A stretch of DNA of 64,000 bases from Clostridia bacterium (GCA_017454485.1 JAFTCX010000042.1:32178-96177); one strand, 5' to 3'; positions 6,531 through 35,884 are shown, numbered from the stretch's first letter. Program-made: numbers and translations. Notes: generated by a model not told the origin, from the sequence alone.

Positions 6531-6560
6531 GGGAATCGTTCCTTACCAATATTTTATAGT

Positions 6561-7472: not shown

Positions 7473-7487
7473 GGAATATGCTCCTTC

Positions 7488-8219: not shown

Positions 8220-8284
8220 AGACTTCCCTCTTTCATGCATAACGCCGCCAAAGCAAAGCCCTGACGGCGGAATTGATTTTCAGT

Positions 8285-8839
8285 TCAGATTTCGAGAATT
8301 TCTTTTTCCTTTGCGTCGGCAATCGTGTCGATGTCTTTGATGAAGCCGTCAGTAATCTTCTGGATCTCTTTTTCGCCGTCTTTCAGATCATCTTCGGTGA
8401 TATCGCTGTTTTTCTTCATCGCCTTGAGCTTTTCAATGCAATCACGGCGAATGGAACGGATTGCGACTTTGCTGGTCTCACCGATTTTCTGCACATCCTT
8501 AGCGAGCTCTTTGCGGCGGTCTTCCGTCAGCGGCGGGAAAGTCAAACGAATGACGCTGCCGTCGTTTTGCGGATTGATGCCGATGTCGGACGCCTGAATT
8601 GCTTTTTCAATGCCCTTGAGTACGGATTTATCCCACGGCGCGATTGTCAGCACACGCGCTTCCGTTGCGGAAACAGAAGCAAGCTGACCGATCGGGGTCG
8701 GCGTGCCATAATAATCGACCGACACACGGTCAAGCACCTGCGGATTTGCGCGGCCGGCACGAATGGCGCCGTATTCGGCCTTTAATGCGTGGATGGTTTT
8801 CTCCATTTTGGTTTTGCAAGTTTCATAGACTTGTTTCAT
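8285..8839 (-). CDS. frr: Ribosome recycling factor
   Basis: 184 aa with full-length Frr-like sequence (ANPQVLDRVSVDYYGTPTPI..., DLKDGEKEIQKITD). Confidence 0.95.
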   Translation of the reverse strand: MKQVYETCKTKMEKTIHALKAEYGAIRAGRANPQVLDRVSVDYYGTPTPIGQLASVSATEARVLTIAPWDKSVLKGIEKAIQASDIGINPQNDGSVIRLTFPPLTEDRRKELAKDVQKIGETSKVAIRSIRRDCIEKLKAMKKNSDITEDDLKDGEKEIQKITDGFIKDIDTIADAKEKEILEI

Positions 8840-8886
8840 GATGTTTCCTTCTTTCGTAGCATAGTTTATGCAATTGTTCGAATATG

Positions 8887-8915
8887 ATTATAGCACATCC
8901 GTCCAAGCGTGGCAA
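8887..8915 (-). promoter_or_regulatory. SigmaA-type promoter for frr (TTGCCA-17 nt-TATAAT with TGc extended -10)
   Basis: Reverse complement of 8910..8915 is TTGCCA and of 8887..8892 is TATAAT, with a 17-nt spacer, about 45 nt upstream of the frr ATG. Confidence 0.5.
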
Positions 8916-8954
8916 GAGGTTTTGGAAGATTTTGAGCAAATTCAAAAAATGTTT

Positions 8955-9722
8955 TCAGTCTTCACCCGGAAAGAAAGAATTGAACTTCGTCTGTAAGTGT
9001 GAGACAAAGCCGCGCACAAAGGGATTGTGTCGCTCATATAAAAACAGAAGGTTCAAAATCCACAGCAGCGGAACAGTGTTGGAAATCGGCGTAACAGAAT
9101 TCACACAAGAAAGGATCATTGTTTGCGGCAGCGTGCAAAGTGCAAACAAAAATGTATGCTTCATGGTCTTCATAGCAGCTTTATCCGATGGTAATGCACC
9201 TGCGGTCGACGTGCGCATCACAAGAAAATACACAACCCAAAGCACTGCAAACAGGAAGAAAAAAAAGATCGTGTTTTTTGTATAAAAACCTTTTTCACTC
9301 TTGAAAAGACTAAACAGCATAACAACAGTTAATGCAACGCAAAACAGCCTTGCAACTGTCAGTCCGGCGACAGAAAAAAAGCCGCCTTTCTTGCCTTTTG
9401 CTGCATCAATCTGAATGACAAAGGACAGCATCGGGGGGATATAGGTCAGGATCATGAAAAAATCATACTGGTTTTCATAGCGCAAAAGGAAAGAAACTAC
9501 AAATAAAACGCCGACGCCGACAAAAGCCAACAGGCCGTTAATCGTCGGCGAAACGCCGTATAAAAACAAGCAATAGAACACAAACGGGAATATGAGTTCC
9601 ACAATCATGAGCGTTTCATCATAAATGAGATTTAGCGTCAACTGATAAAACATCCAGCATGTTGCAAAAAGAAGAAACAACGCAGTCACATTGAGAAGCC
9701 TGGCCTTCTTTTCTGTTTTCAT
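8955..9722 (-). CDS. Polytopic membrane protein, family not recognised (last gene of the envelope operon)
   Basis: 255 aa, almost entirely hydrophobic helices. Lies 38 nt downstream of the preceding gene on the same strand. Confidence 0.6.
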   Translation of the reverse strand: MKTEKKARLLNVTALFLLFATCWMFYQLTLNLIYDETLMIVELIFPFVFYCLFLYGVSPTINGLLAFVGVGVLFVVSFLLRYENQYDFFMILTYIPPMLSFVIQIDAAKGKKGGFFSVAGLTVARLFCVALTVVMLFSLFKSEKGFYTKNTIFFFFLFAVLWVVYFLVMRTSTAGALPSDKAAMKTMKHTFLFALCTLPQTMILSCVNSVTPISNTVPLLWILNLLFLYERHNPFVRGFVSHLQTKFNSFFPGED

Positions 9723-9760
9723 AGCTTTTCACCTGTTTCAAAAAAGAGTGACTATACGAA

Positions 9761-11023
9761 TTAAAAATACGCGAACACATGAATCATCGCATAGCCTAAA
9801 TAATACAATTTCACTTCCGGCCCGCCGGCAGCTTTTTTGATCTTTTCAAGTAAAAGTGCCGCCTTTTCCTTTTCATAATACATGATCAGAAGCACCGTTG
9901 TAAAGATCATCAAAAAGCCGTGTGTCAGCCAGCGGTTGACATCCACCGAAAACAATATTGCAACAAGGAATGTGAAGGGAAACTGTAGCAACATCAAAAG
10001 CGCACAAAAGCGCCCGATGCGATTGTTTGTCATGCGAAGATGCTGCAAAAGAAACTTATAAAACACGAGCAGTAACGGAAAAAGAATGACCAATCCCCCG
10101 ATAAAAGCAATAATAATATGAGAACCAATACTTTGCATCAAATCAAAATTGAAACGAACCTGATACAGTATGAGCTGCCAGATCTTATTCAGTGAAAAAT
10201 CCATGCCGGTCAGTTCCGACGGACGATAGTATTCTCCGCGGAACCAGTTATAAAAGGCATAATCGTAGTATTCAAAGAAATCGGTTCCATGTTCCTGCAG
10301 CTTTTGGTGAAAGGTTTCAATCGGGCAAATGAAACGCGGTTCATAAACCAGAAAGAACAAAAAAGACACAGCAGCCACAAGCATGGATAGTGCAAAAATC
10401 AACAAATAGATGCGACGCTCTTTCTTTTTTTGTTCAATCGAAGCACGATATAAAAGAATGATTGAAAAGAAAATAATCGCATTTAAAATTGCGGAAAAAT
10501 GGATCATGATGGAAGCGACATACAACAATGGGATCAAAAAGCGCAGCCATTTATGCTCCAAAAAAATCAAAAAGAGAAGAGAAAAAAAGAGCCAATAGAC
10601 ATCCAACATGCCAAGCTCCTTCGTATAAACGGAAAAAGTATAGGCCCCTGTAACATAAAACGCAAGCAGTCCCAAAGCGGCGCTGCGGTGTTCCGGCTGT
10701 ACACGCAACACAAATCGCTCAAGAAAGATCGATACACCCGCAAAAAAAAGAAGGATCAAAACTGTTTCATAAATCGAAGCGGTCAGTCTCGAAGCAAAAC
10801 GGCCGAAAAGCGCATTAAAAACCGCACCGGGCAACAGCTTAGTTGCTAAGCCGAGGCTGAAATCCACCGCGTGAAATGCATAGGTGATCTCCTCAACGCG
10901 CCAAGGCTGAAAACGGTTGACAACCACAACATGATACGCAACCAGAAACAGGAAAAAGAAGACGCTGTAACGGTGCTTTTTAAAAAAGGGTGACTGCCGC
11001 AGCGGCGTTTGAACTTTTGACAA
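9761..11023 (-). CDS. Large polytopic membrane protein, possible GT-C/GtrC-like glycosyltransferase (function inferred from context only)
   Basis: 420 aa with ten or more hydrophobic segments. Immediately follows a GtrB-like GT2, and the sequence is visibly A/T-richer than its neighbours. Confidence 0.6.
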   Translation of the reverse strand: MSKVQTPLRQSPFFKKHRYSVFFFLFLVAYHVVVVNRFQPWRVEEITYAFHAVDFSLGLATKLLPGAVFNALFGRFASRLTASIYETVLILLFFAGVSIFLERFVLRVQPEHRSAALGLLAFYVTGAYTFSVYTKELGMLDVYWLFFSLLFLIFLEHKWLRFLIPLLYVASIMIHFSAILNAIIFFSIILLYRASIEQKKKERRIYLLIFALSMLVAAVSFLFFLVYEPRFICPIETFHQKLQEHGTDFFEYYDYAFYNWFRGEYYRPSELTGMDFSLNKIWQLILYQVRFNFDLMQSIGSHIIIAFIGGLVILFPLLLVFYKFLLQHLRMTNNRIGRFCALLMLLQFPFTFLVAILFSVDVNRWLTHGFLMIFTTVLLIMYYEKEKAALLLEKIKKAAGGPEVKLYYLGYAMIHVFAYF

Positions 11024-22255: not shown

Positions 22256-23071
22256 TTAACCGACACTGACCGGTTCGTTTTCCTTTGCCGTATTGAGCAG
22301 TTCAATCTTGCGGTTGATATCGTTTTTGCCGCGATGGCGGTACGGGAACGCGCAAAGGAACGCATACATCAGTAACCCGCCGATAAAGTTCAGCACAATA
22401 TCCCCCATGGTATCCATGAGTGCAAAGCGGCTGATGTCGTTCATCGGGATCATCTGGAAAATTTTGCTCGCATCTCCGCCGGCAGCATCCAGCGCCGCCT
22501 GATAATTCCAGTGCTGCGCGTCGCCGCCGAAGAACTGGTCATAGGTGAACTCAAACAGCTCCCACGCGCTTGAAAGAATGAAGCCGAAGCCGAGCGCGCC
22601 GAGATTGGCGATCTGGTGGGGACAGGTTTTTTTCAGCTTGAGCTGCGTGGCGCAAATGTATTCATAGCCGATGTAAACCGCTTCCGCTGTGCCGTAGGCG
22701 TGCAGAATCTTGTCGTATGCGGGAAGCGCATAATAAAGATTCAGATAAGCGCCGCCGAAGGAACCGAGGAAAAAGCCCAGCGCGGAGATATTCTGGAACG
22801 CATGGGAAAGCAGACGCAACCGGCTGCTTTTCGGGAAAAAGAGCTGAATGATCTCATAGGCAAACATGCCGACAAGATTTGCAACAATCTGCAGCGGCGG
22901 ATTGCTGGCCGTATAACTGCTGCCGGAAAAGAACAGCGTATCAAACAGCGCGTAGATCATCAGCAGGCGCAATATCCACCAATAGATCAGCTCAATTTTG
23001 GAAACGTCTTTCAGCATGGCTTTGAATCTTTGTTTCATAGTTTCACACATCCTTTGCAGGTATTCTATCAT
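22256..23071 (-). CDS. Polytopic membrane protein, family not recognised
   Basis: 271 aa with several hydrophobic helices. Start uncertain (alternative ATG at 23038). Confidence 0.6.
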   Translation of the reverse strand: MIEYLQRMCETMKQRFKAMLKDVSKIELIYWWILRLLMIYALFDTLFFSGSSYTASNPPLQIVANLVGMFAYEIIQLFFPKSSRLRLLSHAFQNISALGFFLGSFGGAYLNLYYALPAYDKILHAYGTAEAVYIGYEYICATQLKLKKTCPHQIANLGALGFGFILSSAWELFEFTYDQFFGGDAQHWNYQAALDAAGGDASKIFQMIPMNDISRFALMDTMGDIVLNFIGGLLMYAFLCAFPYRHRGKNDINRKIELLNTAKENEPVSVG

Positions 23072-23240
23072 GGATATCTAAATTTAAATTTCTAATTCAG
23101 AATTTATTGGTGTCATTTCTGTAACATTTTTGTGTAAATGTGCCTTTTTTCGTCATTTTTTCGTATCTGAGGTAAAAATCCTCTTGTCGTGTGTTGCAAG
23201 ATGTGATAAAATTTATTCAGATTCATTCAGGAGGGTCACT

Positions 23241-24377
23241 ATGGATTTTAATCTCTCTATTCCCGCAAAAGTGCTCAGCGGAAACGGCGTTGTTTTAAAA
23301 AACACCGCGCTGTTTTCCTCGCTCGGCAAGCGCTGTCTCATCGTCACCGGCGGAAAAAGCGCAGTCCTTTCCGGCGCGCTCGATGATGTGACCGCAGCGC
23401 TCACGCAGGAGCACATCACCTACAGCGTGTTTGACCGCATCGGACCGAATCCCCTGCTATCCGCCTGTCATGCCGCTGGTACGCTTGCGCGCGAAGAGGG
23501 TGCGGCGTTTCTCATCGGCATCGGCGGCGGCTCTGCGCTCGACGCAGCAAAAGCGGCCGCGGTATACGCTGCAAATGCTGATTTTGCGCCGGAGGACATC
23601 TATACAAAACCGCGCAAAAGCGTTTTACCATTCCTATTGATTGGCACAACGGCCGGCACCGGCAGCGAAGTCGGAAAAGTTTCGGTGCTGACAAACGACA
23701 GCACTGGCCGCAAAAAGAGCATCTCCGGCGACGATCTGTATCCGGTGCTGACCTTTGCCGATCCGCGTTACACTGCTTCGATGCCGTATGCCGTCACGGT
23801 TTCTACTGCGCTTGACGCGCTTTCGCATGCGCTTGAGGGTTATTGTTCCCCGAAATGCGGCGACATTCCCTCGCTCTTTGCGGAAAAGGCAGTCGCGCTG
23901 CTTTGGGACGGTCTGACGCGCCTTGAAGCAACGCACGCGCTGCCGGACACAAACGAACGCGAAGCGCTCTATTACGGTTCGCTTTATGCAGGCATCACGC
24001 TCGCCTATTGCGGCACGGGCTTTCCGCACCCGCTCGGTTACGTACTGACGGAAAACTTCGGCACACCGCACGGTTTTGCCTGCGCCGCGTTTTTGCCGGA
24101 ATTCATGCAGCGAGCCGCAATTTATTCGCCGAAGCGCTGTGAAAAAATCCTCTCTGCCATGGGCACCGACCTTGATTCTTTTTCCAAAACCGTTCGTGCG
24201 CTGACTGAACTCGGCGACATTTATATGACGTGCGAAGAGGTAAAAACGCAGTGTACGCGCTGGGACGCAGCGATTCCGAACAATTTTAAATTCAGTCCGG
24301 GCGGCTTTACCAAAGAACTGGCGCAGGAGCTGCTGCTCGAAATGCTGACGAACATTGACAACCCGACCTGTTTGTGA
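23241..24377 (+). CDS. Iron-containing (group III) alcohol dehydrogenase family protein
   Basis: GGGSALDAAKA nucleotide-binding motif and ~380 aa length. The ATG at 23241 follows GGAGGG; the track start at 23130 lacks an RBS. Confidence 0.85.
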   Translation: MDFNLSIPAKVLSGNGVVLKNTALFSSLGKRCLIVTGGKSAVLSGALDDVTAALTQEHITYSVFDRIGPNPLLSACHAAGTLAREEGAAFLIGIGGGSALDAAKAAAVYAANADFAPEDIYTKPRKSVLPFLLIGTTAGTGSEVGKVSVLTNDSTGRKKSISGDDLYPVLTFADPRYTASMPYAVTVSTALDALSHALEGYCSPKCGDIPSLFAEKAVALLWDGLTRLEATHALPDTNEREALYYGSLYAGITLAYCGTGFPHPLGYVLTENFGTPHGFACAAFLPEFMQRAAIYSPKRCEKILSAMGTDLDSFSKTVRALTELGDIYMTCEEVKTQCTRWDAAIPNNFKFSPGGFTKELAQELLLEMLTNIDNPTCL

Positions 24378-24439
24378 TATAGTATAGAAAGAAAGAACTG
24401 CTATCGTTTCGCCATGCGAAGCACAAGGCGGATGGACCG

Positions 24440-26047
24440 GTGATCATTATGCAGGAACCTTACCCGCTTTATTCCCTGTTGATCGAAATTACGCAAAAAT
24501 GCAACGCCGCGTGTGACCAGTGCGGCAGCAGATGCGACATTCACAGCGAAGAACGCCTTTCCAAGGCGCAGATCCTTGCTGCGCTGCGCGATATCAAGGA
24601 AAACATCGGCACCTACACCATGCTCAACATCACCGGCGGTGAACCGCTGCTGCGGCGTGATCTGTTTGAGATCATGACCGAAGCGTCGGACATGGGCTTT
24701 GACTGGGGCATGGTAACCAATGGTTCGCTCATCACGGACAGCGTGATCGAACAAATGCGGCAAAGCGGCATGAAAACCATCACCGTCAGCGTGGACGGGC
24801 TGCGCGACACACACGATTCGCTGCGCCACCTGCCCGGCTGCTGGGACAAGATCATGACCGCGCTGCATAAGCTGAAAAGCGCCGCGTTTCTCGATCATCT
24901 GCAAGTGACCTTTACGGCGAACCGCCGCAATGTTTTTGAATTTGAAGCCCTATATCGTATTTTGCGCCCCATCGGTCTTGATTCCATTCGCGTGAGCTTT
25001 ATGGATCCCATCGGCCGCGCACTGGACAACACCGAGCTGCTTTTAACGCGTGAAGAAATTCTGTATCTCACGCAGCTTGCTAACAAATTGAACAGCGATC
25101 CGCACGGCACAAAAATCATCTGGGGCTGTCCGCATTTTTTGGGAAATCAGCTTGACAACCGGCGTTTCCATTGTTTTGCCGGAATTTACAGCGCATCCAT
25201 TCTTTTCAACGGTGATATCTTCGTTTGTCCGAATGTGCCGCACAGAAACGAACTCATTCAAGGAAATATCCTCACGGATTCCTTCAGCGAGGTTTGGAAA
25301 ACGAAATTCCATTTCTTCCGCAGCCGTCCATTGCCCGCAAAATGCAAGGGATGCAAATATCAAAGCGATTGCGGCGGTGATTCGCTGCACACGCTTGATT
25401 TTGACTCCGGTGAACCGCTGTTTTGCTACCGTGATTTTTTGGAGCAGCCGGACAGTGAGGCGCTTAAAAGGGCGATATTCTCCCGCCGGAGCGACTTAAA
25501 GTTTTGTGAGATCTCTTCCGGCGAAGCAGATGCGCGGGAGGTGCTCATTGAGCCAGACGCGTTTGATTCCATCCGGCAGTATTTTCACTTCGGTCGAAAA
25601 CAGCCGCAAAATATGTTTGAACAGCAAATGGCGCTTGTCGGCTTTTCCTGCGATCACACAGATGTGGTACGCTATGTTATTCCCTGCGACGGCACACTGC
25701 GCGCCGAAGACAATGCGCTGTTTACGCGGCGGATTTTGAAAACGGTGGAAAAAGAGCTGAACATCATCAACCGCAATTACTATCAAAGTGACGACCGGGC
25801 GCTTCCCGGCAGCGAATGCAGCAACCGCCGACCGATGAAATTTCTCGGCTTCATCCACAGTCATCCCGCTCAGCACGAACTGCAATACAGCACCGGCGAC
25901 GACGAGATTCACATGCGAATGCTCAAGCGCTTCGGCAGCTATGTCGGCATTCTGGTCAACCCCGCCGATGAGACGCTGGGGGCATATTACGGAAAAGAGC
26001 TTCACCAGGCAAAGCTGATCGTTCCCGATCTTTTTCACAAAACCTGA
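24440..26047 (+). CDS. Radical SAM/SPASM-type enzyme fused to a C-terminal JAB/MPN (JAMM) metalloprotease-like domain
   Basis: CNAACDQC (CxxxCxxC) within the first 30 aa. SPASM-like CFAGIYSASILFNGDIFVC ... CKGCKYQSDCGGDS. The C-terminal ~180 aa carry FEQQMALVGF (Glu) and GFIHSHPAQHELQYSTGD (H-x-H-x8-S-x2-D). Confidence 0.85.
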   Translation: MIIMQEPYPLYSLLIEITQKCNAACDQCGSRCDIHSEERLSKAQILAALRDIKENIGTYTMLNITGGEPLLRRDLFEIMTEASDMGFDWGMVTNGSLITDSVIEQMRQSGMKTITVSVDGLRDTHDSLRHLPGCWDKIMTALHKLKSAAFLDHLQVTFTANRRNVFEFEALYRILRPIGLDSIRVSFMDPIGRALDNTELLLTREEILYLTQLANKLNSDPHGTKIIWGCPHFLGNQLDNRRFHCFAGIYSASILFNGDIFVCPNVPHRNELIQGNILTDSFSEVWKTKFHFFRSRPLPAKCKGCKYQSDCGGDSLHTLDFDSGEPLFCYRDFLEQPDSEALKRAIFSRRSDLKFCEISSGEADAREVLIEPDAFDSIRQYFHFGRKQPQNMFEQQMALVGFSCDHTDVVRYVIPCDGTLRAEDNALFTRRILKTVEKELNIINRNYYQSDDRALPGSECSNRRPMKFLGFIHSHPAQHELQYSTGDDEIHMRMLKRFGSYVGILVNPADETLGAYYGKELHQAKLIVPDLFHKT

Positions 26048-26091
26048 TCAAACACATTCCATTTAATCTTATGATAAAGGAGGTCATTCTC

Positions 26092-26334
26092 ATGCGCGCA
26101 TTTTTTGCACTGATCCTGTCCTGGGTCAAAAAGCTGCTCCACATCCGCTTCGTTGATGATCCCGCAAAGGACGATCCGACACCCGGCAATAACGAGCCGA
26201 TCGACGATCCGTCGGCGGATCCGGGTCCCGCATTTCCCGACCGTCCCGATCCCAACGAGTACGTCTGCTACTATGGATGCCCGAACAGCAAAAGAGCTCA
26301 AAGACTGCAGCTCAGCCGTAAACCGATCAAATAA
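26092..26334 (+). CDS. 80-aa peptide: hydrophobic N-terminus, Asp-Pro-rich linker, YVCYYGCP core and basic tail (candidate rSAM substrate)
   Basis: The ATG at 26092 lies 8 nt after AAGGAGG and 44 nt after the rSAM stop. Codons mostly end in G/C, like neighbouring genes. Followed by a hairpin terminator. Sequence: MRAFFALILSWVKKLLHIRFVDDPAKDDPTPGNNEPIDDPSADPGPAFPDRPDPNEYVCYYGCPNSKRAQRLQLSRKPIK. Confidence 0.6.
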   Translation: MRAFFALILSWVKKLLHIRFVDDPAKDDPTPGNNEPIDDPSADPGPAFPDRPDPNEYVCYYGCPNSKRAQRLQLSRKPIK

Positions 26335-26347
26335 ACCAATTCAGCGC

Positions 26348-26384
26348 AAAAGCACCGAGGTCACGCCCCGGTGCTTTTCTTTCT
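26348..26384. terminator. Bidirectional hairpin terminator between the convergent peptide and response-regulator genes
   Basis: AAAAGCACCG-11 nt loop-CGGTGCTTTT followed by CTTTCT. The A-run upstream serves the opposite strand. Confidence 0.65.
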
Positions 26385-26390
26385 GTAACT

Positions 26391-27194
26391 TTATTCTTTC
26401 GAGCGCAGCCGCTCCATATAGCTTTCCGTCAAGCTCGCCCAGGTGTAAGCGCTCATATATTCGCCGCGATACGCGTTGACCGCGTCGCTGTCTCCGGCAA
26501 AAAAGCGGTAAAGATCACAATCGATCATTTCCGGCTGGATGCGCAAATAGCCCTTATGCAGCTCCAAAAGGTCGCCGATGCCGTTGCGGTCGAGCGTATC
26601 GCGCAAAGAACGGATAACAACATCAAGCTGCTTTTGCATGGAGCGGTCATAATACGCGTCCTCCCACAGTGCGGCAAACGCGCTTGCGCGGGAAACAAGG
26701 CTCCCCTGCCGGTCGATCAGATAAGCCAGCAGCTCCTTTGCTCTTGCGCGTCCAAACACCACCGGCTGCCCGTTGACCAAAAGGTCAAACTCGCCGAACG
26801 TGTGCGCTTCGATGGTTGCTTTTTTTTGCATCGGCCGACGATTGGACATGGCGTAGCTGACTTCGTCGGCAAGGCGCTGGGCGCTGACCGGTTTCAGCAG
26901 ATAGCCGGACGCGTGCAGGCCGAACGCGTCCACAGCATATTGCGTGTGCCCGGTCAAAAAGATGATGGCTGTAGAAGGGCGCAGCTCCTTGATCTTTGCC
27001 GCAAGTGTGATGCCATCCATGTCGGGCATATTGATGTCAAGGATCGCAATGTCCGCTTCATGGGTTTTCAGCCATTCGAGCGCGTCACTCGCTTTTTGAA
27101 AGCCCTCGGCCAGCGGCTTTTGCGGCAGCTCCTTGCAAAGCGACACCGTAAGGCCCAGCACAAGCGCTTCATCGTCCACACAGATAATCTGCAT
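26391..27194 (-). CDS. Response regulator: REC domain plus SARP/OmpR-type winged helix with partial BTAD
   Basis: MQIICVDDE..ILDINMPDMDG..IIFLTGH..YLLKP, then FGEFDLLVNGQPVVF..AKELLAYLIDRQG..LWED. The ATG at 27194 follows GGAGGG; the track start at 27308 would overlap the kinase gene. Confidence 0.85.
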   Translation of the reverse strand: MQIICVDDEALVLGLTVSLCKELPQKPLAEGFQKASDALEWLKTHEADIAILDINMPDMDGITLAAKIKELRPSTAIIFLTGHTQYAVDAFGLHASGYLLKPVSAQRLADEVSYAMSNRRPMQKKATIEAHTFGEFDLLVNGQPVVFGRARAKELLAYLIDRQGSLVSRASAFAALWEDAYYDRSMQKQLDVVIRSLRDTLDRNGIGDLLELHKGYLRIQPEMIDCDLYRFFAGDSDAVNAYRGEYMSAYTWASLTESYMERLRSKE

Positions 27195-27208
27195 TTTTCC
27201 CTCCAGCG

Positions 27209-28504
27209 TTATCTTGAATGATCCGTCTCGTTCGGTATGTTCGGAATATAAATGGTAACAGTCGTACCCGCATTGGGGCTGCTTTCCACTGTCAAGGTGC
27301 CGCCGCAAAGCTGTTCGAGCCGTGCGCGCACATTGCGGATGCCGATGTGCGTTTCGTCCATTTCCTGCATTGCGGCAACGTCAAAACCCTTGCCGTTATC
27401 CTGCACAACAATTTTATGCCGCCCGGGCAGGCTTTGCGTAGAAACGGTCACAAGCCCCGTGTCACGGATGCGCACACCGTGCCGAATCGCATTTTCCACA
27501 AGCGGCTGGATTGTCAGCGCCGGAATGCGGAAATCAAGATCCGGCGTATCGTAGGTCACATGCACTGACGGAAAACGGATCTGCTCAATCTCCGCGTAAA
27601 TGCGCACATGTTCAAGCTCCTTTTGCACGGAAATGATGCTCGGTTGACGGAGAGAATCAATGTTTTGCCGCAGGTAGGTGCCGAACTTTTCGGTTGTATC
27701 AAACGCCTTGTCCGGATCGATCTTGCAAAGCGCCTGAATGGTGGAAAGCGTATTATACAAAAAGTGCGGTTGAATCTGGCTCATCATGATTTGGATCTGC
27801 TGCTCCGCCATCAGCGCCTTTTCATGCGCGCGGACGAATTGCAGGTGCAGCCAAATATAATAGAACACACTGCTTGTTACTACAGCGATCGTCAAAAATG
27901 TGACCGGGAACGCTTCAAAGCTGACGAACGTGTCCGCAAGCACTGCCGCGACGATCAGAATCACATTGCAGGCCGGGATCAAAACTTCCCGTTTCCGAAT
28001 CACGGTAAAGGATTTTGCCGTGATCCAAAGCAGCCAAAGCAGCAAAATTCCGCTGACAATGTGGCAACTGTAGCCAAGCGGTCCGCGATAAAAATGGTTG
28101 TTTTCGTCAAAGGCAAAGCAAACGTCGGAAAACAGCGCCGTCAGGTGGATCAAAGCGTTGATGCCGATCAGCACCCAGGCCGGCCAGTAAGAGCGATGAC
28201 CGCCGACGATATAGAAAAACAGCACAAGAACGATCGGTCGCACACAGTAGCCGTAGATGCTGATCAACGTTCGCAAAAAGGCCATAGAGCCCGAAGCGTC
28301 AAGCAAAAAATTCAAATGATTCTGCACAAGCAGACTGAAACCGACCGCGATGTTCAAAAGCATGATCCTTCGGTGCTTTTTTTGAATGTAGGGATCCAGA
28401 AGGATCGCGAAGGTCAGCCCGATGAGCTGCAGCAACAGCGTGAGCTCGACGAGCATTCCCGAAGTCATCAAATTTTGCAGCACGCGATCACACTCCCTAC
28501 CCAA
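27209..28504 (-). CDS. Sensor histidine kinase, LytS/YesM type (His_kinase plus HATPase_c) with a multi-TM sensor
   Basis: Six or so N-terminal TM helices. QIQPHFLYNTLSTI phosphoacceptor region. LVENAIRHG, DNGKGF and GIGIRNV ATPase boxes. Confidence 0.85.
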   Translation of the reverse strand: MGRECDRVLQNLMTSGMLVELTLLLQLIGLTFAILLDPYIQKKHRRIMLLNIAVGFSLLVQNHLNFLLDASGSMAFLRTLISIYGYCVRPIVLVLFFYIVGGHRSYWPAWVLIGINALIHLTALFSDVCFAFDENNHFYRGPLGYSCHIVSGILLLWLLWITAKSFTVIRKREVLIPACNVILIVAAVLADTFVSFEAFPVTFLTIAVVTSSVFYYIWLHLQFVRAHEKALMAEQQIQIMMSQIQPHFLYNTLSTIQALCKIDPDKAFDTTEKFGTYLRQNIDSLRQPSIISVQKELEHVRIYAEIEQIRFPSVHVTYDTPDLDFRIPALTIQPLVENAIRHGVRIRDTGLVTVSTQSLPGRHKIVVQDNGKGFDVAAMQEMDETHIGIRNVRARLEQLCGGTLTVESSPNAGTTVTIYIPNIPNETDHSR

Positions 28505-30153: not shown

Positions 30154-33100
30154 TTAACGGACCACAAAATTGCGGAAGCTTTGGAACGCGTGGACAAACA
30201 GGTGCACGACGGTGTAAACAAATTTCACAAAACCGTTGTTGCTGCTTGCCTGCATTTTCGCGTTGCTGTTGCACATAGAGCAGCGGAAGCCGGTGTCAAT
30301 CGTCTGGCCGCAATCGTCGCAGACATTGTCGAAATCACTGTCGCTGTGATGATGCTTGCCAAGCGTTCTGCCGCAAACGTCACACTTGTCGTCGTTATTT
30401 ACATCCACGTGATCGATCATCGGGATCACTTCGGTTTGAACGTGCGCAGCATCGTTGGCACAAGTGCGCGTTCTGCTGCCCGCCGCAGTACACGTTGCCG
30501 CTTTGGTCACTGTCCAGTCACTCCATGCGTGACCGATTGCGGAACCTGCGACTGTACGAGTATCGGTTGCTTCGCAGCGTTCGCACTTTGCCGTCTCTGT
30601 GCCGTCTTCTTCGCACGTTGCATCATTGTTGGACACATAGTTTACAAAGCTGTGGCCGAGCGAAGGCGTGGTATGCGGTGTGCTGCTGAGTGTAACGCAG
30701 CATTCGCAGATCACAACTTCATCATAGCTGCCGCCCGCTTCACAGCTTGCCGGAATCACATTTGCCTGACTTGTCGAGTTGTTGCCGGTATGGTTTTCCG
30801 GATCAATCGCAAGCGTTTTCACATTCGTCGCACCGCAGGCGCAGGACTGATTCTGTGCGCCTTCTTCCATGCAGGTCGCCTGTTTCGTCACAGTACCGTC
30901 CACCCAGGTATGGGGCTCGTCAATATAGGAGCCGGTGATTGTTACATCGGCAGAAACGTTCGTGTAATTGCCGATCCAACCGGAAAAGCGTTGATGCGTC
31001 TCGCCGTTATTGATCAGCGCCTGCTGTGTCGGCGCTGTGGCGCTTTCACCGGAAATGACAGGTTCTTCCTTTATGATTTCATCATCAAGCTTGAATGTTA
31101 CCGTGAAATACTGCAACTCTTCAATCGTCTCAAGCAGTGCGGCAAGCTCGTTCAAAGCGGTATTCACCGCCGCTTCATTGTCATCAATCGAAAGTGCAGT
31201 GTTGAGTGCGCCGAGCTTTTCATCCAGCGCTTCTATGTCGCTTTCCTTATACTTCATCGGATCTTCTTCGGCTGCGCTTTTGATTGTTTGCGCATTGGTA
31301 TACACAGCATTCTCATTGATGTTCAGCCTGTCACGCACGATGCCTTCGGAAACCAAATGATCACACGCCACGCAGTAGGTGTCGCCGGTGTAGCCGGTGC
31401 AGGTGTAACCGGCGTCTTTCTGATTCTTCAGTTTTGTTTCGTTCGTGGAATGATTGTGATAATCAAAGTCGCCGTAAGAAGCGTTGCAGATTGTGCAAAT
31501 CGCCTTGGCTGTGCAGGTCGCGGTACCGCCGCTATGTGCAGCCTTTCCATCGAACTCGCCGCAGCCGTTGGCACATTCATACCAGTGCTCGTTCTCGTCC
31601 GATTGCAGAACGCTGAAATTATGCGGACCGCGCGTATTATCGCTCAAAGACGCCAGTTCGGTTTCGCCCGATTCGTCAGCGTAGTCTTTACCGCAAACGC
31701 TGCAATGGTAATGCGCAACGGTGCCGAAGCTCATGCAATTTACGGCAGGGACAGCACCAACAAACGTCATGCTGTGTCCAGGGGCAGGAATGGTGTCGGT
31801 TTTTGTGTCGGTAAAGGTCTGCGTTCCGATGGTTGCAGTTGCGGTAAAGGTTTTATAACCGTCCACAAGGTGCTGCACCGGAACGTCGGCGGTCTTTTCC
31901 ACGCTTGCCGTCAGCGTTTTCGTGTCGTCGCCCTTGACGCACTGAACCGTCACAGTCACATTGTAGCTCTCGCCGTTTACCGTCCATGTCCAGTCCGCCT
32001 TTGCAGGCTCGCCGTAAGTGTGACCCGTGGCAGCCTCGCCGGGAACGGTCTGCGTGATTGCGTTGGTGTAGGTTGTGCCGCCGAAAGTCACCGTGGCGGT
32101 ATAGACCGTGTAGCCGGCCGCTGTGCACGTCGCTTCATGCGCATCGGGCGACACGGTCACTTCCGGTTGGACGGTATAGGCGCAGTCGTCGCATTGGAAG
32201 GTGACAGTGGTTTTGTGGTCTTCCGTCCATTCGCTCCAGGAAGGCGGAGCAGAAAAGCTGTGCGCAGCTAAGCCTGTGGTTTCGTTACAATTGGCGCACT
32301 TTTTCCAGTGATTCGTCTCATCGTATAGCGCAACGCTGAAAATGTGCGGTCCGGGTGTGCCGTCGCTCAAGTCGCTCAGCTCATTTTGCGCAGCATCGTC
32401 GCTGAAATGCTTTTCGCAGACCGTGCAGGTATAATACGCCACTGTGCCGGTCTCGGTGCATTTTGTTGCTGCCACAGCCGCCGTCTGTGCGCCAAGCTGA
32501 TGCGCACCGAAGGTGTCGTCGGAAAGCTCGGTCAGCTCTGTTTTGCCCTGCTCGTCAGCAAAGTTTTTATTACAGCCGCTGCAGTGGTAATAGGCGACCG
32601 TGCCGTAATGTTCGCAGTCGACGCCCGAAACCGCAGCAAAAAACTGCATACTGTGTCCTTCGGCGTTGATGGTGTCGGTTCTTGTTGCGGTAAAGGTCTG
32701 ATCGCCAATCGTGGCAGTCGCTTTGAAAGTTTTATGACCGTTCTCAAGGTGCTGCGCCGGAACATCGGCGGTCTTTTCCATGCTCGCGGTCAAAGTCTGC
32801 GTGTCGTCGCCCTTGACGCAGGAGACAGAGACCGAAACATTATAACTGTCACCGTTCGGCGTCCATGTCCAGTCGGTTGCAGCGGGTTCGGCATAGGTAT
32901 GACCCGTGGCGGGAATTTCAACATAAGTCGAATAATCGCAGCGTGTGCAGGTTTGATAAGCCGCCCAGCCGACAGCCGTACAGGTCGGTTCCTGCGCAGC
33001 ATGATTCACATAATTATGGTCAAGCGGTTCGCCGCTTTCAAAGGTTTCGGTGCCCTTGTAGCCGCAGACGCAGGATTTGAAGTAGCTCGCCTTTTCGGTG

Positions 33101-35823
33101 CAGGTCGCAGCCTTTTTCAGATATTTCGCGTCAACAACTTCCTGATCGAACACATGCGCCGCAGGGGTAAAGGTCGCGCGGATGGTGTTGTTGGCGGTAA
33201 TGTTTGTGTAGCCGCTCCAGCCGTCAAAGGTGTAATGGTTGGCGGCGTCGGTGTAGTTTTCCTGCGCTGCAGGCGGCGTAGCGTCAGAGCCGTGCACAAC
33301 GTTTTCACGCTTCAGCTCGTTGCCGTCTTTATCCTCGAAAATGACGGTGTAGCTGTTGAGCGCTGCCGCGCCGAGGGAGATAGTGGTGTCGCCGGTCACA
33401 TTCGGCACGGTGTAGGTAATCACGTTGCCGGATTTTGACGTTGTCACCGCTGCGGCATTCGTTGCCGTGCAAGTTGGCGCAGCGCTGTTCGTGTAGCCGT
33501 CAGCGAGTGTAATTGCAAAGGTGACGCTGCCGCCGTGGTTGACCGTCGCTGCCGGAGCCGTCGACACTGTGTAGCCGGTGCCGTTAAAGTCTTGGGCCAC
33601 AGTGTAGCTGTTGAGCGCTGCCGCGCCGAGGGAGATGGTGGTGTCGCCGTTCACGTTCGGCACAGTGTAGGTAATCACATTGCCGGATTTTGACGTTGTC
33701 ACCGCTGCGGCATTCGTTGCCGTGCAGGACGGCACAGCGCTGTTCGTGTAGCCGTCGGCAAGTGTAATTGCAAACGTGACGGTGCCGCCGTGGTTGACAG
33801 TAGACGCCGGTTGGGTTGTCACGGTGTAGCCGGTTTGGTCAGGGTTAAAGGTGACGTCGTAGGTGTTGATGGCAAACGTCAAATTGACCGAAACGTCGTT
33901 GTCAATGATGGTGCCTTCGAGCGCTCCATCAGCGCTGACATAATGATAGCCGTCCATCGGCGTCGGAACAATCCGGTAGGTCGAATGCGAAAGATGAGTT
34001 TCATTGTAGGTATACATGTCATCCGCAACGTTTTCGTTGTTGACGTAAACGCTGAACATGCCCATGCCACTGGCAACATCGACTTTCAGCGTGTGCGAAT
34101 CCTGCGACCATCTTGCCCACAGCGTTGAAGCCGCCGCCTTGTCCCAGGCGCGGGCGGAGGAGCCGTCGGCATTGTAATACTTTGTGCCGCCCGTTTGCGC
34201 GCTCGTATCATAATAGCCCGCAAAGGTATAGCCGGCTCTGGTCGGCATGGTTGTCGACGGCATTGCCGCATCATACGTCGCAGTTACAGAAGTTGTACCG
34301 CCCGTGCCGTCGTTCTTGTTGAGGGTGACTTCATATGTGTTCGGCGTCCAGTTCAGATCATATGTCACGGAGCTGACCGGACCGGACTCGCCCTCTGTAA
34401 CCACATACGCGTTCATCGGCGCAGTGACACCCGCCGTGTAGCTGTCGCCCGGAGCAAGCTGGCCGGAGCTGCCAGTCCAGTTGCCGTTGCGCGTATAGCC
34501 GGTTTTGCTTGGGTTCGGGGTCGTGAAAGCATTATTATAAGTTTTGGTAATGGTTTGATTCGTACCGGAATCCATGTCAACAAATTTGGATTCAAAGGTG
34601 AACATGTTGCGATACCAGGAGTGAATCGGATATTTATAAGTGGTGCTGCCGATTTTCACGCCCCAGGTGTTGGTGACAAGCTGGGCAGAGGAAATGGTTG
34701 CCGCGCCGTTTTGCATTTGCGCAGAAGACCACTGGGTTGCCTGTGCGCGGTTGTTTGAGGACGAGATCGTACCGCAGTTATAGCTGCCCGAATAAGAAGT
34801 GGTTGAACTCCAGCCGATATCATAGGCATAACCGGAACCCGCACTGATGGTACCGGCGTTATAAAGATTATTGAAATATCCTCCATAAGCTTTATTGACA
34901 TCGACATCACCAATTCCGGAAAAAATGCCGCCGGACATATAGTTGGACGAAACACTGCCCCAGTTGAAGCACTGGTCAAACTCGGAGTTGCCTGATTCTG
35001 TAATATAGCCGATGATGCCTCCGTCATAGTTGCCACCGCTGACCGCGCCGGCGTTCCAGCACTGCTTGAACCACACCCAGTCGGCGGTTGTTCCGCTGTT
35101 TCCAACAAAGTAACCGAACAGTCCCCCGGCTGTGCCGCTGTTGTTCGAAGTAACAGCACCAACATTATAACAATGGACAAACGTTTCGCCAACCTTTGAT
35201 TCGGAATAGCCAACAAGTCCACCGCTGTATCTACCGCTGACACTTGCCGCGTTCGAGCAGTCGTTCATGTTCAGTGCTCCGCTGCTGAGCTCTCTATATT
35301 GACCGACAAGGCCGCCGACGTGTGAGCTGCCTGAAACAGAGCCGCTGCGGATATGGACATTATTCATCGTCAGAGTGCCGCTGACGTAACCGACTACAGC
35401 GGCAATATCATCGGCAGAGACGCTCACATTCACATTGTCCATATTCAAATTTTGAATCACGGCACTGCCGGTGACATAGCGAAACAGACCCTGATACTGC
35501 CCGCTGCCGGTCAAGGTAAAGTTTTTTATGGTATGTCCCTTGCCGTCAAAGGTACCGCAAAAGCCATTGTTTGCGTTATTCTGCACACCGTTCATGTTTT
35601 GCCCGCTAAGGTCAATGTCCGCACTCAGCTCAACGGTTTTTCCGCTGTAGCTGTTGCCGCCCGCAACATTTTGCAAAAAGGTTTTGAGCTGCGCCGCCGT
35701 TGAAATCGTCAAATCCGCCGCGCTCGCCGTCGGCGCAACAAACACCCACGCGCTCAGCAGCATGAGCACGCTCAAAAGCACCGACAAAGAGCGCTTTCCT
35801 GTTCGTTTCATTCGTTTCATCAT
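30154..35823 (-). CDS. Giant secreted/surface protein (~1890 aa): GLUG-like repeats, Listeria/Bacteroides-type (Flg_new) repeats, Ig-like tandem repeats and a long Cys/His-rich C-terminal half
   Basis: AAGGAGG RBS 6 nt before the ATG at 35823. Signal peptide MMKRMKRTGKRSLSVLLSVLMLLSAWVFVAPTASA. GGLVG/GGLFG/GGIIG repeats. TYEVTLNKNDGTGG...AGYTFAGYY...LWARW. Thirteen CxxC pairs. Own promoter and terminator. Confidence 0.85.
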   Translation of the reverse strand: MMKRMKRTGKRSLSVLLSVLMLLSAWVFVAPTASAADLTISTAAQLKTFLQNVAGGNSYSGKTVELSADIDLSGQNMNGVQNNANNGFCGTFDGKGHTIKNFTLTGSGQYQGLFRYVTGSAVIQNLNMDNVNVSVSADDIAAVVGYVSGTLTMNNVHIRSGSVSGSSHVGGLVGQYRELSSGALNMNDCSNAASVSGRYSGGLVGYSESKVGETFVHCYNVGAVTSNNSGTAGGLFGYFVGNSGTTADWVWFKQCWNAGAVSGGNYDGGIIGYITESGNSEFDQCFNWGSVSSNYMSGGIFSGIGDVDVNKAYGGYFNNLYNAGTISAGSGYAYDIGWSSTTSYSGSYNCGTISSSNNRAQATQWSSAQMQNGAATISSAQLVTNTWGVKIGSTTYKYPIHSWYRNMFTFESKFVDMDSGTNQTITKTYNNAFTTPNPSKTGYTRNGNWTGSSGQLAPGDSYTAGVTAPMNAYVVTEGESGPVSSVTYDLNWTPNTYEVTLNKNDGTGGTTSVTATYDAAMPSTTMPTRAGYTFAGYYDTSAQTGGTKYYNADGSSARAWDKAAASTLWARWSQDSHTLKVDVASGMGMFSVYVNNENVADDMYTYNETHLSHSTYRIVPTPMDGYHYVSADGALEGTIIDNDVSVNLTFAINTYDVTFNPDQTGYTVTTQPASTVNHGGTVTFAITLADGYTNSAVPSCTATNAAAVTTSKSGNVITYTVPNVNGDTTISLGAAALNSYTVAQDFNGTGYTVSTAPAATVNHGGSVTFAITLADGYTNSAAPTCTATNAAAVTTSKSGNVITYTVPNVTGDTTISLGAAALNSYTVIFEDKDGNELKRENVVHGSDATPPAAQENYTDAANHYTFDGWSGYTNITANNTIRATFTPAAHVFDQEVVDAKYLKKAATCTEKASYFKSCVCGYKGTETFESGEPLDHNYVNHAAQEPTCTAVGWAAYQTCTRCDYSTYVEIPATGHTYAEPAATDWTWTPNGDSYNVSVSVSCVKGDDTQTLTASMEKTADVPAQHLENGHKTFKATATIGDQTFTATRTDTINAEGHSMQFFAAVSGVDCEHYGTVAYYHCSGCNKNFADEQGKTELTELSDDTFGAHQLGAQTAAVAATKCTETGTVAYYTCTVCEKHFSDDAAQNELSDLSDGTPGPHIFSVALYDETNHWKKCANCNETTGLAAHSFSAPPSWSEWTEDHKTTVTFQCDDCAYTVQPEVTVSPDAHEATCTAAGYTVYTATVTFGGTTYTNAITQTVPGEAATGHTYGEPAKADWTWTVNGESYNVTVTVQCVKGDDTKTLTASVEKTADVPVQHLVDGYKTFTATATIGTQTFTDTKTDTIPAPGHSMTFVGAVPAVNCMSFGTVAHYHCSVCGKDYADESGETELASLSDNTRGPHNFSVLQSDENEHWYECANGCGEFDGKAAHSGGTATCTAKAICTICNASYGDFDYHNHSTNETKLKNQKDAGYTCTGYTGDTYCVACDHLVSEGIVRDRLNINENAVYTNAQTIKSAAEEDPMKYKESDIEALDEKLGALNTALSIDDNEAAVNTALNELAALLETIEELQYFTVTFKLDDEIIKEEPVISGESATAPTQQALINNGETHQRFSGWIGNYTNVSADVTITGSYIDEPHTWVDGTVTKQATCMEEGAQNQSCACGATNVKTLAIDPENHTGNNSTSQANVIPASCEAGGSYDEVVICECCVTLSSTPHTTPSLGHSFVNYVSNNDATCEEDGTETAKCERCEATDTRTVAGSAIGHAWSDWTVTKAATCTAAGSRTRTCANDAAHVQTEVIPMIDHVDVNNDDKCDVCGRTLGKHHHSDSDFDNVCDDCGQTIDTGFRCSMCNSNAKMQASSNNGFVKFVYTVVHLFVHAFQSFRNFVVR
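31620..32025 (-). repeat. Intragenic duplicated ~135-codon module, copy 2 (GHTYGEPAKADWTWTVNGESYNVTVTVQCVKGDDTKTLTAS...HYHCSVCGKDY...GPH)
   Basis: Collinear with copy 1 at the protein level, with many identical residues by eye. The DNA has diverged. Confidence 0.75.
32500..32905 (-). repeat. Intragenic duplicated ~135-codon module, copy 1 (GHTYAEPAATDWTWTPNGDSYNVSVSVSCVKGDDTQTLTAS...YYHCSGCNKNF...GAH)
   Basis: See copy 2. The offset between the copies is about 880 bp. Confidence 0.75.
33347..33856 (-). repeat. Two tandem 255-bp (85-codon) repeats inside the giant gene
   Basis: GTGTAGCTGTTGAGCGCTGCCGCGCCGAGGGAGAT... recurs at 33347 and 33602. There are about a dozen substitutions in the first ~190 bp. 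Encodes ...GYTV.T.PA.TVNHGG.VTFAITLADGYTNSA.P.CTATNAAAVTTSKSGNVITYTVPNV.GDTTISLGAAAL. Confidence 0.9.
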
Positions 35824-35855
35824 AAGTATCCTCCTTACCATATGAATACAGTCTA

Positions 35856-35884
35856 ATTTTACCACCTGTTTTTGCAAATGTCAA
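35856..35884 (-). promoter_or_regulatory. SigmaA-type promoter of the giant gene (TTGACA-17 nt-TAAAAT with TGg extended -10)
   Basis: Reverse complement of 35879..35884 is TTGACA and of 35856..35861 is TAAAAT. Lies between the upstream terminator and the RBS. Confidence 0.55.

Follow-up and report, generated by a model that had tools for sequence, protein, structure and literature searches.

We analysed a window of 64,000 nucleotides (nt), one strand read 5' to 3', from Clostridia bacterium (GCA_017454485.1, JAFTCX010000042.1:32178-96177); all coordinates below are counted from its first letter. The locus considered here comprises a gene for a fusion enzyme with radical S-adenosylmethionine (rSAM), SPASM, and JAB/MPN+ domains (24440-26047, plus strand) and, immediately downstream, an open reading frame (ORF) of 80 amino acids (aa) encoding its presumed substrate (26092-26334, plus strand). 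Together they look like an undescribed, self-contained two-gene maturation cassette, most likely related to tyramine-splicing (spliceotide) systems. With high probability, it modifies and cuts a substrate at a Tyr-Gly-Cys-Pro (YGCP) tag, in the manner of peptides that are ribosomally synthesized and modified post-translationally (RiPPs).

The fusion enzyme and the peptide gene

The gene for the fusion enzyme encodes 535 aa if read from GTG 24440; the true start is probably ATG 24449 instead, since the homologs open with MQE... The radical SAM core (aa ~15-230; 24482-25129, +) is matched by PF04055 over aa 15-152 with E 7.8e-20 and a score of 72.1 bits against a cut-off of 29.5, which places the enzyme in the Radical SAM superfamily. 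The CxxxCxxC motif, CNAACDQC at aa 21-28 (24500-24523, +), can be read directly from the sequence, and its cysteines (C21-x3-C25-x2-C28) are invariant in the alignment of 31 close homologs. Because this motif begins at residue 21, the enzyme has no N-terminal RiPP recognition element (RRE). The SPASM auxiliary-cluster region (aa 245-332; 25172-25435, +; PF13186, E 1e-8, 35.7 bits against a cut-off of 21.5) contains C245, C263, C302-x2-C305-x5-C311-x3-S315, and C329, locally C302KGC305KYQSDC311GGDS315...C329, so that the fourth Cys of CX2CX5CX3C, which belongs to the seven-Cys pattern of SPASM enzymes, is replaced by Ser. The SPASM Cys residues and S315 are invariant across the alignment of the fusion family, and as the fourth Cys is an invariant Ser, one of the auxiliary clusters may have a non-Cys or open ligand. 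The same variant is shared by stand-alone rSAM relatives and is absent from PlpX. The initial annotation of the locus had described both the ORF lacking an RRE and the Ser-for-Cys SPASM region, and both descriptions hold.

The best NCBIfam match of the fusion enzyme is the uncharacterised model TIGR04133 'rSAM_w_lipo' (215.3 bits, full-length, aa 8-332); the cut-off is 425, hence the enzyme is not a member. Other fusion members score 248-275 bits and stand-alone relatives 303-330 bits, all below the same cut-off. The ranking continues with AhbD (124 bits), NirJ2 (123), and TIGR04103, the PlpX family (114), the last being the best-scoring model of a characterised peptide maturase, with only TIGR04133 and AhbD and NirJ2, which are heme enzymes, ahead of it. 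The MftC model TIGR03962 gives 102.7 bits, below its cut-off of 265 (140 bits for an archaeal member), and the StsB and PapB models give 79 bits, short of their respective cut-offs, 625 and 340. The features of sactipeptide and ranthipeptide maturases, an N-terminal RRE and several Cys donors or acceptors in the precursor, are not seen here, as there is no RRE and only one conserved Cys. The full-length AlphaFold2 (AF2) model has a predicted local distance difference test score (pLDDT) of 88.4 and a predicted template-modelling score (pTM) of 0.86; the best Foldseek matches of its rSAM half are SkfB, CteB, SuiB, and anSME, with ChlB and PqqE also similar (RiPP maturases).

The C-terminal domain (aa ~365-530; 25532-26029, +) carries E394 (in FEQQM, aa 393-397), H473, H475, S484, and D487 (the last four in HSHPAQHELQYSTGD, aa 473-487), followed by H491. 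The set E394/H473/H475/S484/D487 is invariant in the 31 close homologs and also in a 20-member set that includes Ruminococcus and Methanocorpusculum members at 20-26% identity; H491 is likewise invariant in both alignments. Single-sequence searches with this domain yield weak matches (Prok-JAB, E 0.04-0.05; AfJAMM, E 0.4), and Prok-JAB is matched by 12 of the 20 family members, at best with E 2.5e-4. The PDB profile search with the domain alignment retrieves essentially JAMM deubiquitinases only (AMSH-LP with E 8.5e-6, Sst2, STAMBP, Rpn11-like, BRCC36); the AMSH-LP alignment spans the metal motif, the family residues aligning to HTHP...S..D. For the AF2 model of the domain (pLDDT 88.6), the top 50 Foldseek matches in PDB are all MPN (E down to 7.8e-8, prob 1.0, target-normalised template-modelling score up to 0.76), the best being a Caldiarchaeum Rpn11 homolog, BRCC36, CSN5, and Rpn11 (E ~1e-7). 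Since conservation, profile search, and structure model are three independent lines, the assignment is settled: the domain is a JAB/MPN+ domain. Thus, the JAMM-like E...HxH-x8-S-x2-D domain proposed in the initial annotation stands; of the profile models that it had suggested running, Radical_SAM (E 7.8e-20) and SPASM (E 1e-8) pass, and JAB stays under the Pfam gathering scores and is supported by the profile and structure comparisons. As the full JAMM catalytic set is invariant, we regard the domain as a zinc peptidase that is active and probably acts on the precursor.

This JAB is a divergent JAMM subfamily, and a small one, with 46 clusters (50% identity, E <= 1e-3) among 1.84 billion representatives, most of them fusions of ~520-560 aa or fragments. 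Candidate stand-alone copies of ~200 aa were rejected, as they seem to be protein fragments encoded on short contigs (one of them, P0188, lies on a contig of 1 kb). More distant relatives (E ~1e-6), in which EQQ and HxH-x8-S-xx-D are kept, have the domain at the N-terminus of proteins of 364-462 aa. In one metagenome contig (L080, 946-3503, carrying P0212), the gene upstream of the JAB protein encodes two ubiquitin-like (Ubl) repeats fused to an E2-like domain with an HxN...C motif, HINVWETGTICISDW, and the locus looks like an operon for ubiquitin-like conjugation in bacteria. Since the nearest non-fusion relatives sit in an operon of this Ubl/E2 type, descent of the fused JAB from tail-processing JABs would fit.

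The ORF of 80 aa (26092-26334, +) starts with ATG 26092, 8 nt downstream of the ribosome-binding site AAGGAGG (26077-26083, +; read from the sequence). The encoded peptide consists of an N-terminal amphipathic helix, a variable Pro/Asp linker, the Y-G-C-P tag, and a basic follower, NSKRAQRLQLSRKPIK. The tag, defined by residue counts over 90 substrates (see below), occupies aa 61-64 (26272-26283, +) and is the predicted site of modification and cleavage; Y60 is the variable X of X-Y-G. The ORF is followed by an intrinsic-terminator hairpin (26349-26378, +) with a folding energy of -19.3 kcal/mol (z -4.09; 0 of 200 shuffles as stable) and a subsequent U-rich stretch, UUUUCUUUCU. Every sequence feature given in the initial annotation is present at the coordinates stated there. 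The fusion gene is preceded by a TG-extended TTGACA-17 nt-TATAGT (24355-24383, +), which agrees with 11 of 12 consensus positions and is the best promoter-like site in 22900-26700, as a match to the sigma-70-type consensus only; it overlaps the stop codon of the preceding gene, for an iron-dependent alcohol dehydrogenase (Fe-ADH), and the cassette is probably transcribed from its own promoter.

The substrate family and its pairing with the enzyme

More than 120 full-length homologs of the fusion are found at 50-97% identity, all labelled merely 'radical SAM protein'. The survey of loci, in which one genome per species was scanned, comprises 59 full-length fusion loci and about 18 stand-alone rSAM/SPASM relatives; the fusion loci come from rumen and gut Clostridia, Lachnospiraceae, Ruminococcus, Oribacterium, and two Methanocorpusculum metagenome-assembled genomes (MAGs). 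At 60 of the 61 fusion loci, tblastn and the ORF scan reveal one to six adjoining ORFs on the same strand with x-Y-G-C-P near the C-terminus, 90 ORFs in total. The pattern [YLHMFW]YG[CA]P has 90 matches in 668 kb of fusion loci, all of them on the strand of the enzyme gene and 0 on the complementary one, and a single match across the six frames of the 64-kb window. The tag-bearing ORFs lie 3' of the enzyme gene in close relatives and directly 5' of it in Lachnospiraceae and in more distant clades. That a small ORF should recur beside homologs of the fusion had been set beforehand as a check in the initial annotation, and the pairing of enzyme and substrate genes is obligate. Only at L028 (enzyme at 6001-7584, 72% identical) is a Y-G-C-P ORF missing within 6 kb, whichever strand is considered; here, the precursor may be located elsewhere in the genome or may have been lost. 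All-versus-all clustering of ORFs in 79 loci reveals no other conserved neighbour, be it a transporter, a second protease, Fe-ADH, or a two-component system; as no further gene is conserved, the cassette consists of the enzyme and its substrate or substrates.

Counts over the 90 substrates show invariant Tyr, Gly, and Pro (90 each) and a nearly invariant Cys after Gly (87, with Ala in the other 3). The residue X before the tag Tyr is Tyr in 57, Leu in 26, His in 5, and Phe and Met in 1 each; the residue before X is Cys in 48 of 90 and otherwise variable. The conserved core is hence x-Y-G-C-P, not C-Y-Y-G-C-P. Of the YVCYYGCP core marked in the initial annotation, Tyr, Gly, Pro, and the second Cys are retained, while the first Cys is not; the Asp-Pro-rich stretch, there given as a feature of the peptide, turns out to be a linker, variable both in length and in sequence.

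The substrates end 16-35 residues past the tag Tyr, and the tail behind the tag is conserved inside each enzyme clade and differs from clade to clade: PNSKKAxKLQLxxKxYR in rumen Clostridia, PNSKRVKKLNLKKR in Lachnospiraceae, PMAxSVEEAINQAEKYS... in gut Clostridia, PVSSEIEKxY... in Ruminococcus, and PNPxELSxVTL... in Methanocorpusculum. From one clade to another, no relation is seen between the N-terminal parts, which are hypervariable even in tandem paralogs. Those of the class to which the window peptide belongs are Trp/Phe-rich amphipathic helices, hypervariable among tandem paralogs; Lachnospiraceae have a lipoprotein signal peptide with a lipobox, gut Clostridia a soluble domain of ~100 aa, Ruminococcus a zinc ribbon plus a domain, and Methanocorpusculum a transmembrane segment. 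The overall pattern is that of a C-terminal recognition tag with a follower, placed on diverse cargo, rather than that of a leader-core peptide. No NCBIfam or Pfam family matches any of the substrate classes, apart from lipoprotein signal-peptide noise.

Several loci deviate from this scheme or add to it. In an Oribacterium MAG (L077), the fusion enzyme (5737-7749) has long insertions in its rSAM half, including DRDAQI(A/S)QI repeats, and both adjoining lipoprotein-type substrates (4533-5452) have YYGAP in place of YYGCP. The gut Clostridia substrates of ~145 aa (L033-L048 and L057, ~5520-5990 in each) show an N-terminal beta-beta-alpha-beta-beta-beta-like pattern, and the stretch RSLEELGIKExSxIxIxxG in them resembles the C-terminal part of ubiquitin. 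A Ubl domain in these substrates is not supported, as the PDB profile search is empty and hhalign against ubiquitin gives E 0.077 over 19 columns. In both Methanocorpusculum MAGs (L058 and L059, from gut samples), the cassette is complete, with the fusion and two upstream CLYGCP substrates, one of which has an N-terminal transmembrane segment. The presence of the complete cassette in these MAGs implies a transfer between domains, to methanogenic archaea.

Stand-alone, JAB-less relatives of the rSAM part (L060-L078) are 43-46% identical to it and have an extra N-terminal segment of ~35 aa. Loci with TIGR04133-like genes of this kind, from Bacilli, Tenericutes, Bacteroidales, and Methanobacteriaceae MAGs, are L065 (7007-9118), L070 (~7019-9919), L073 (~7019-9913), and L074 (1727-3799), and also L060-L064, L066, and L069. 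The proteins encoded 3' of these stand-alone genes contain one to four repeats of KYD[VI]xPE[DE]N[VI]PQxVYG[IVPT]P[DN] and look like a family of multi-site substrates, the repeats possibly being splice sites. Cys after Gly is seen in none of ~35 repeat motifs of this JAB-less clade, versus 87 of 90 in the substrates of the fusion clade. Common to both clades are the variable X, the invariant Y-G, and, usually, Pro two residues on. In Patescibacteria (L067, 2171-2545; L072, 5063-5963; L078, 5414-5938), one to three tandem small proteins are encoded 5' of the rSAM gene, all of them having a signal peptide, a YG(P) motif, and, at the C-terminus, a transmembrane segment with a basic tail.

Proposed maturation route and competing explanations

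Spliceases are rSAM-SPASM enzymes that act at XYG (PMC11414181, PMC10849128); hundreds of binary enzyme-precursor pathways are spread over 189 genera, tyramine splicing can be leader-independent, and substrates of protein size exist (PMC11414181, PMC9811515, PMC10849128). The splice tags of PlpA are AVAAMYGVVFP and PIRPGYGLPI (PMC10533398 supplement), and splicease activity requires a helper helix (PMC11414181). The arrangement typical of such systems, an rSAM-SPASM gene beside a precursor with X-Y-G, is seen at 60 of the 61 fusion loci, and the same signature is present in the JAB-less clade. The PlpX sequence, obtained via the genomic locus of its precursor, gives an alignment that spans the whole rSAM/SPASM part of the fusion (27% identity over 358 aa, E 5e-32). 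Its own model scores are 824 bits for TIGR04103, 395 for TIGR03913, 168 for AhbD, 152 for TIGR04053, and 148 for TIGR04133, the latter in fifth place. Judging by these profiles, whose rankings are reciprocal and not exclusive, the fusion enzyme belongs to the same SPASM subgroup as the spliceases, outside the PlpX family.

Given a variable first Cys, Ala instead of the second one in three substrates, and Cys-free motifs in the sister clade, the shared target of the rSAM domain would be Y-G, which points to splicease-like chemistry. Of the chemistries considered, tyramine splicing itself has the most support, and we rate it at slightly less than an even chance. The tag Cys, nearly invariant in the JAB clade and absent from the JAB-less one, goes along with JAB and not with the rSAM chemistry; it fits better as part of a cleavage site than as an rSAM target. 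The bonds cut by JAMM enzymes follow a slim Gly at a C-terminus, Gly|Cys bonds included, as Mec+ does in CysO-Gly-Gly|Cys and QbsD in QbsE Gly-Gly|Cys-Phe, and we infer by this analogy, tentatively, a cut between G62 and C63.

In the route that we propose, the invariant x-Y-G-C-P and the clade-specific follower of ~16-30 aa would together form a C-terminal recognition module. The rSAM/SPASM domain would bind this module without an RRE and modify Tyr-Gly, the likeliest modification being the excision of tyramine to leave an alpha-ketoamide. The fused JAB/MPN+ zinc peptidase would then cut the processed precursor, most likely at G62|C63, and shed the follower; in the window peptide, such a cut would yield the 18-mer CPNSKRAQRLQLSRKPIK and an N-terminal fragment ending in (keto)Y-G. 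The released N-terminal part would end in ketoamide-Gly; for the window peptide it would be an amphipathic helix, and in other clades it would take the form of a lipoprotein, a soluble domain, or a membrane-anchored peptide. For this combination of Y-G modification, most likely tyramine excision, with subsequent removal of the follower by JAB, we see the chances as evenly balanced. The loss of the bulky Tyr at P2 would also leave a Gly-Gly-like backbone and could admit the site to the narrow JAB groove, thereby gating the cleavage. The strict version, a bifunctional splice-then-cut maturase in which only the spliced, Gly-Gly-like ketoamide segment fits the JAB site and the Gly|Cys cut releases lipoproteins, small proteins, or peptides targeted to the membrane, each with an electrophilic ketoamide-Gly warhead at its end, is a speculative one, and we hold it to be unlikely.

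A number of observations weigh against splicing followed by JAB cleavage. The fusion enzyme has 114 bits with TIGR04103, far below the cut-off of 725, and so is not of the PlpX family (type I); it also falls short of the TIGR04133 cut-off (215 against 425). The likeness to PlpX does not go beyond shared membership of the AhbD/NirJ-like SPASM subgroup, AhbD and NirJ2 slightly outscoring TIGR04103. As the SPASM region of the fusion lacks the fourth Cys that PlpX carries, the chemistry of its auxiliary cluster may differ from that of PlpX, and the near-invariance of the tag Cys (87 of 90) could mark Cys-based chemistry instead. On the JAB side, the spacing from HxH to Ser is x8 throughout the fusion family, compared with the canonical x7, and the domain remains under the Pfam gathering scores (13.9 bits against 25 for PF01398, and 13.2 against 22.5 for PF14464). 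The domain architecture, the catalytic residues, the motif, and the obligate pairing of the two genes are shown; which reaction takes place, where and in which order the precursor is processed, and what the product does are all inferred, the order and the site of cleavage purely so. No solved splicease structure is present in PDB, the top structural matches being generic SPASM RiPP maturases.

Instead of splicing, the rSAM/SPASM part could cross-link C-x-Y-G-C-P, by a sactionine or ranthionine thioether from Cys, a Tyr-Cys or Tyr C-C cyclophane, or a three-residue Y-G-C ring, and JAB would trim the precursor; the initial annotation had favoured such a thioether or aryl C-C link. The closest solved folds are indeed cross-linking RiPP maturases (SkfB, CteB, SuiB), Cys follows Gly in 87 of 90 substrates, with a further Cys two residues before the invariant Tyr in 48, and the absent fourth SPASM Cys could leave an open iron site on the auxiliary cluster, similar to the one to which the substrate Cys binds in CteB. 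However, the upstream Cys varies, YYGAP is present in three substrates, two of which are the pair in L077, and known cross-link motifs do not feature an invariant Gly beside Tyr. Moreover, the JAB-less clade has the same Ser-for-Cys SPASM region, yet its substrates are Y-G-[I/V/P/T]-P and Cys-free, and because of this neither the tag Cys nor the open site can be tied to a Cys chemistry shared by the two clades. Both the YYGAP substrates and the Cys-free relatives weaken cross-linking of Cys and Tyr, which we consider rather unlikely. The synthesis of a small redox cofactor from Y-G-C(-P), in the manner of mycofactocin or PQQ, with excision by JAB and possibly for use by the adjacent Fe-ADH, has the lowest probability of the explanations considered. 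It would account for the invariance of the modified residues, which is also characteristic of PqqA and MftA, and agrees with the MftC model TIGR03962 being among the matching ones and with the Fe-ADH gene lying directly upstream in the window. It does not account for up to six tandem paralogs with hypervariable N-termini, lipoprotein signals, and large N-terminal domains, unexpected in a cofactor precursor, nor for a tag that is not C-terminal (a mycofactocin precursor ends in Val-Tyr) and the lack of conserved genes for further tailoring or transport. Fe-ADH is not conserved beside the other fusion loci, and the promoter-like site (24355-24383) separates it from the fusion gene; hence it does not belong to the cassette, and its co-transcription, as suggested in the initial annotation, is not borne out.

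The JAB domain might also be no peptidase at all, and serve as a docking or activating module that replaces an RRE or a PlpY-type helper, any cleavage being left to unlinked host proteases or signal peptidases. Eukaryotic MPN- domains do act as scaffolds, and the loci contain neither an RRE nor a gene for a Y-protein. A helper helix is needed by spliceases (PMC11414181). Nevertheless, such a role is improbable, as the E, HxH, S, and D set, the hallmark of active MPN+ domains that scaffolding MPN- domains lose, is invariant from Clostridia to Methanocorpusculum at 20-26% identity.

Relation to known systems and genomic surroundings

Spliceotide pathways (PlpX/PcpX/RhaX with PlpA-type precursors; Morinaka 2018 and Scott 2022, as reviewed in the papers cited at the end of this sentence) share with the cassette an rSAM + SPASM enzyme with an adjacent precursor; a variable X and an invariant Y-G, often followed by an aliphatic residue or x-Pro; and, in many cases, the binary make-up, possible leader independence, and substrates that are peptides or whole proteins (PMC11414181, PMC9811515, PMC10849128). 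They differ in that the fusion enzyme has a C-terminal JAB/MPN+ domain, lies outside TIGR04103, and has no fourth SPASM Cys, while its substrates bear the tag near the C-terminus with a follower, not behind a Nif11/NHLP leader, and have Cys-Pro after Gly; splicing, too, is a predicted reaction here. The TIGR04133 family (a hypothetical equivalog) and the stand-alone relatives have the same CX2CX5CX3-Ser SPASM and neighbouring x-Y-G-x-P substrates, and Lachnospiraceae fusion members have lipoprotein-type substrates as well. The stand-alone relatives are distinguished by the absence of JAB, the N-terminal extra of ~35 aa, no Cys after Gly, and, often, several motif repeats.

Tail-processing JAMM peptidases (Mec+/CysO, QbsD/QbsE, the archaeal Rpn11 homolog, HvJAMM1) have the same fold and E/HxH/S/D zinc site, and the candidate Gly|Cys site mirrors CysO-GG|Cys and QbsE-GG|CF. 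The differences are the fusion of JAB to rSAM, Tyr or a spliced ketoamide instead of Gly at P2, the spacing of 8 instead of 7, no genes for E1 or sulfur carriers, and substrates that are not demonstrably beta-grasp. Follower-dependent RiPPs, such as bottromycin, likewise combine a C-terminal recognition sequence with a metal-dependent hydrolase; in bottromycin, a metallo-amidohydrolase removes the follower, as is predicted for JAB here. The enzyme families and the chemistry are unrelated, and in our case the hydrolase is fused to the modifying enzyme.

The initial annotation knew of no rSAM/SPASM-JAB fusion, and the searchable literature agrees, containing nothing that links rSAM/SPASM to JAB/JAMM and nothing on TIGR04133; the clade may still be listed in the catalogue of splicease types reportedly compiled by Scott et al. 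2022 (Chem 8:2659), which lies outside that search. Nor is a fusion with a protease described in the splicease and spliceotide papers PMC11414181, PMC11626197, PMC9811515, PMC10849128, PMC11002830, and the PMC10533398 supplement. What is new, compared with known rSAM/SPASM peptide-maturation cassettes, is the fusion to a JAB peptidase, a C-terminal tag of Y-G-C-P and a follower, and cargo of great diversity.

The protease of an rSAM-RiPP system is in most cases not linked to the other genes and must be guessed. In this cassette, one polypeptide comprises both the enzyme for modification and a protease dedicated to it, with the substrate adjoining, so the whole pathway should be reconstitutable from two genes and its product read directly. 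The family has a wide distribution among anaerobes of the rumen and gut and among gut methanogens, with carriers as different as amphipathic peptides (in up to six variable copies), lipoproteins, and proteins of 100-190 aa, and because they are so different they suggest a general means of placing a reactive group on proteins directed to the surface or the membrane. If splicing is the reaction, the cassette would be a compact, RRE-free tag-and-follower module for installing ketoamides, with built-in removal of the tag; if it is not, a new rSAM reaction at a Tyr-Gly-Cys-Pro site would be at hand. Splicing followed by the gated cut would, if true, provide the first native maturation route and defined product end for any spliceotide, as well as the first functional coupling of an rSAM enzyme to the ubiquitin-protease fold. 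The known partners of JAB/MPN+ domains are extended past ubiquitin-like and sulfur-carrier systems.

A defence system was considered for the cassette and rejected, as PADLOC gives generic viperin-type rSAM matches only and none for the JAB part or the peptide. The neighbours of the cassette in the window are ordinary genes of sugar metabolism, transport, and two-component systems. Convergent to the cassette, on the minus strand (26391-28504), are genes for a response regulator (receiver + Trans_reg_C) and a LytS-type histidine kinase, which are not conserved near homologous cassettes. Further downstream (30154-35877, minus strand) lies a gene, unrelated to the cassette, for a secreted protein of 1907 aa with Listeria-Bacteroides repeats and many Cys-rich (CxxC...) modules.

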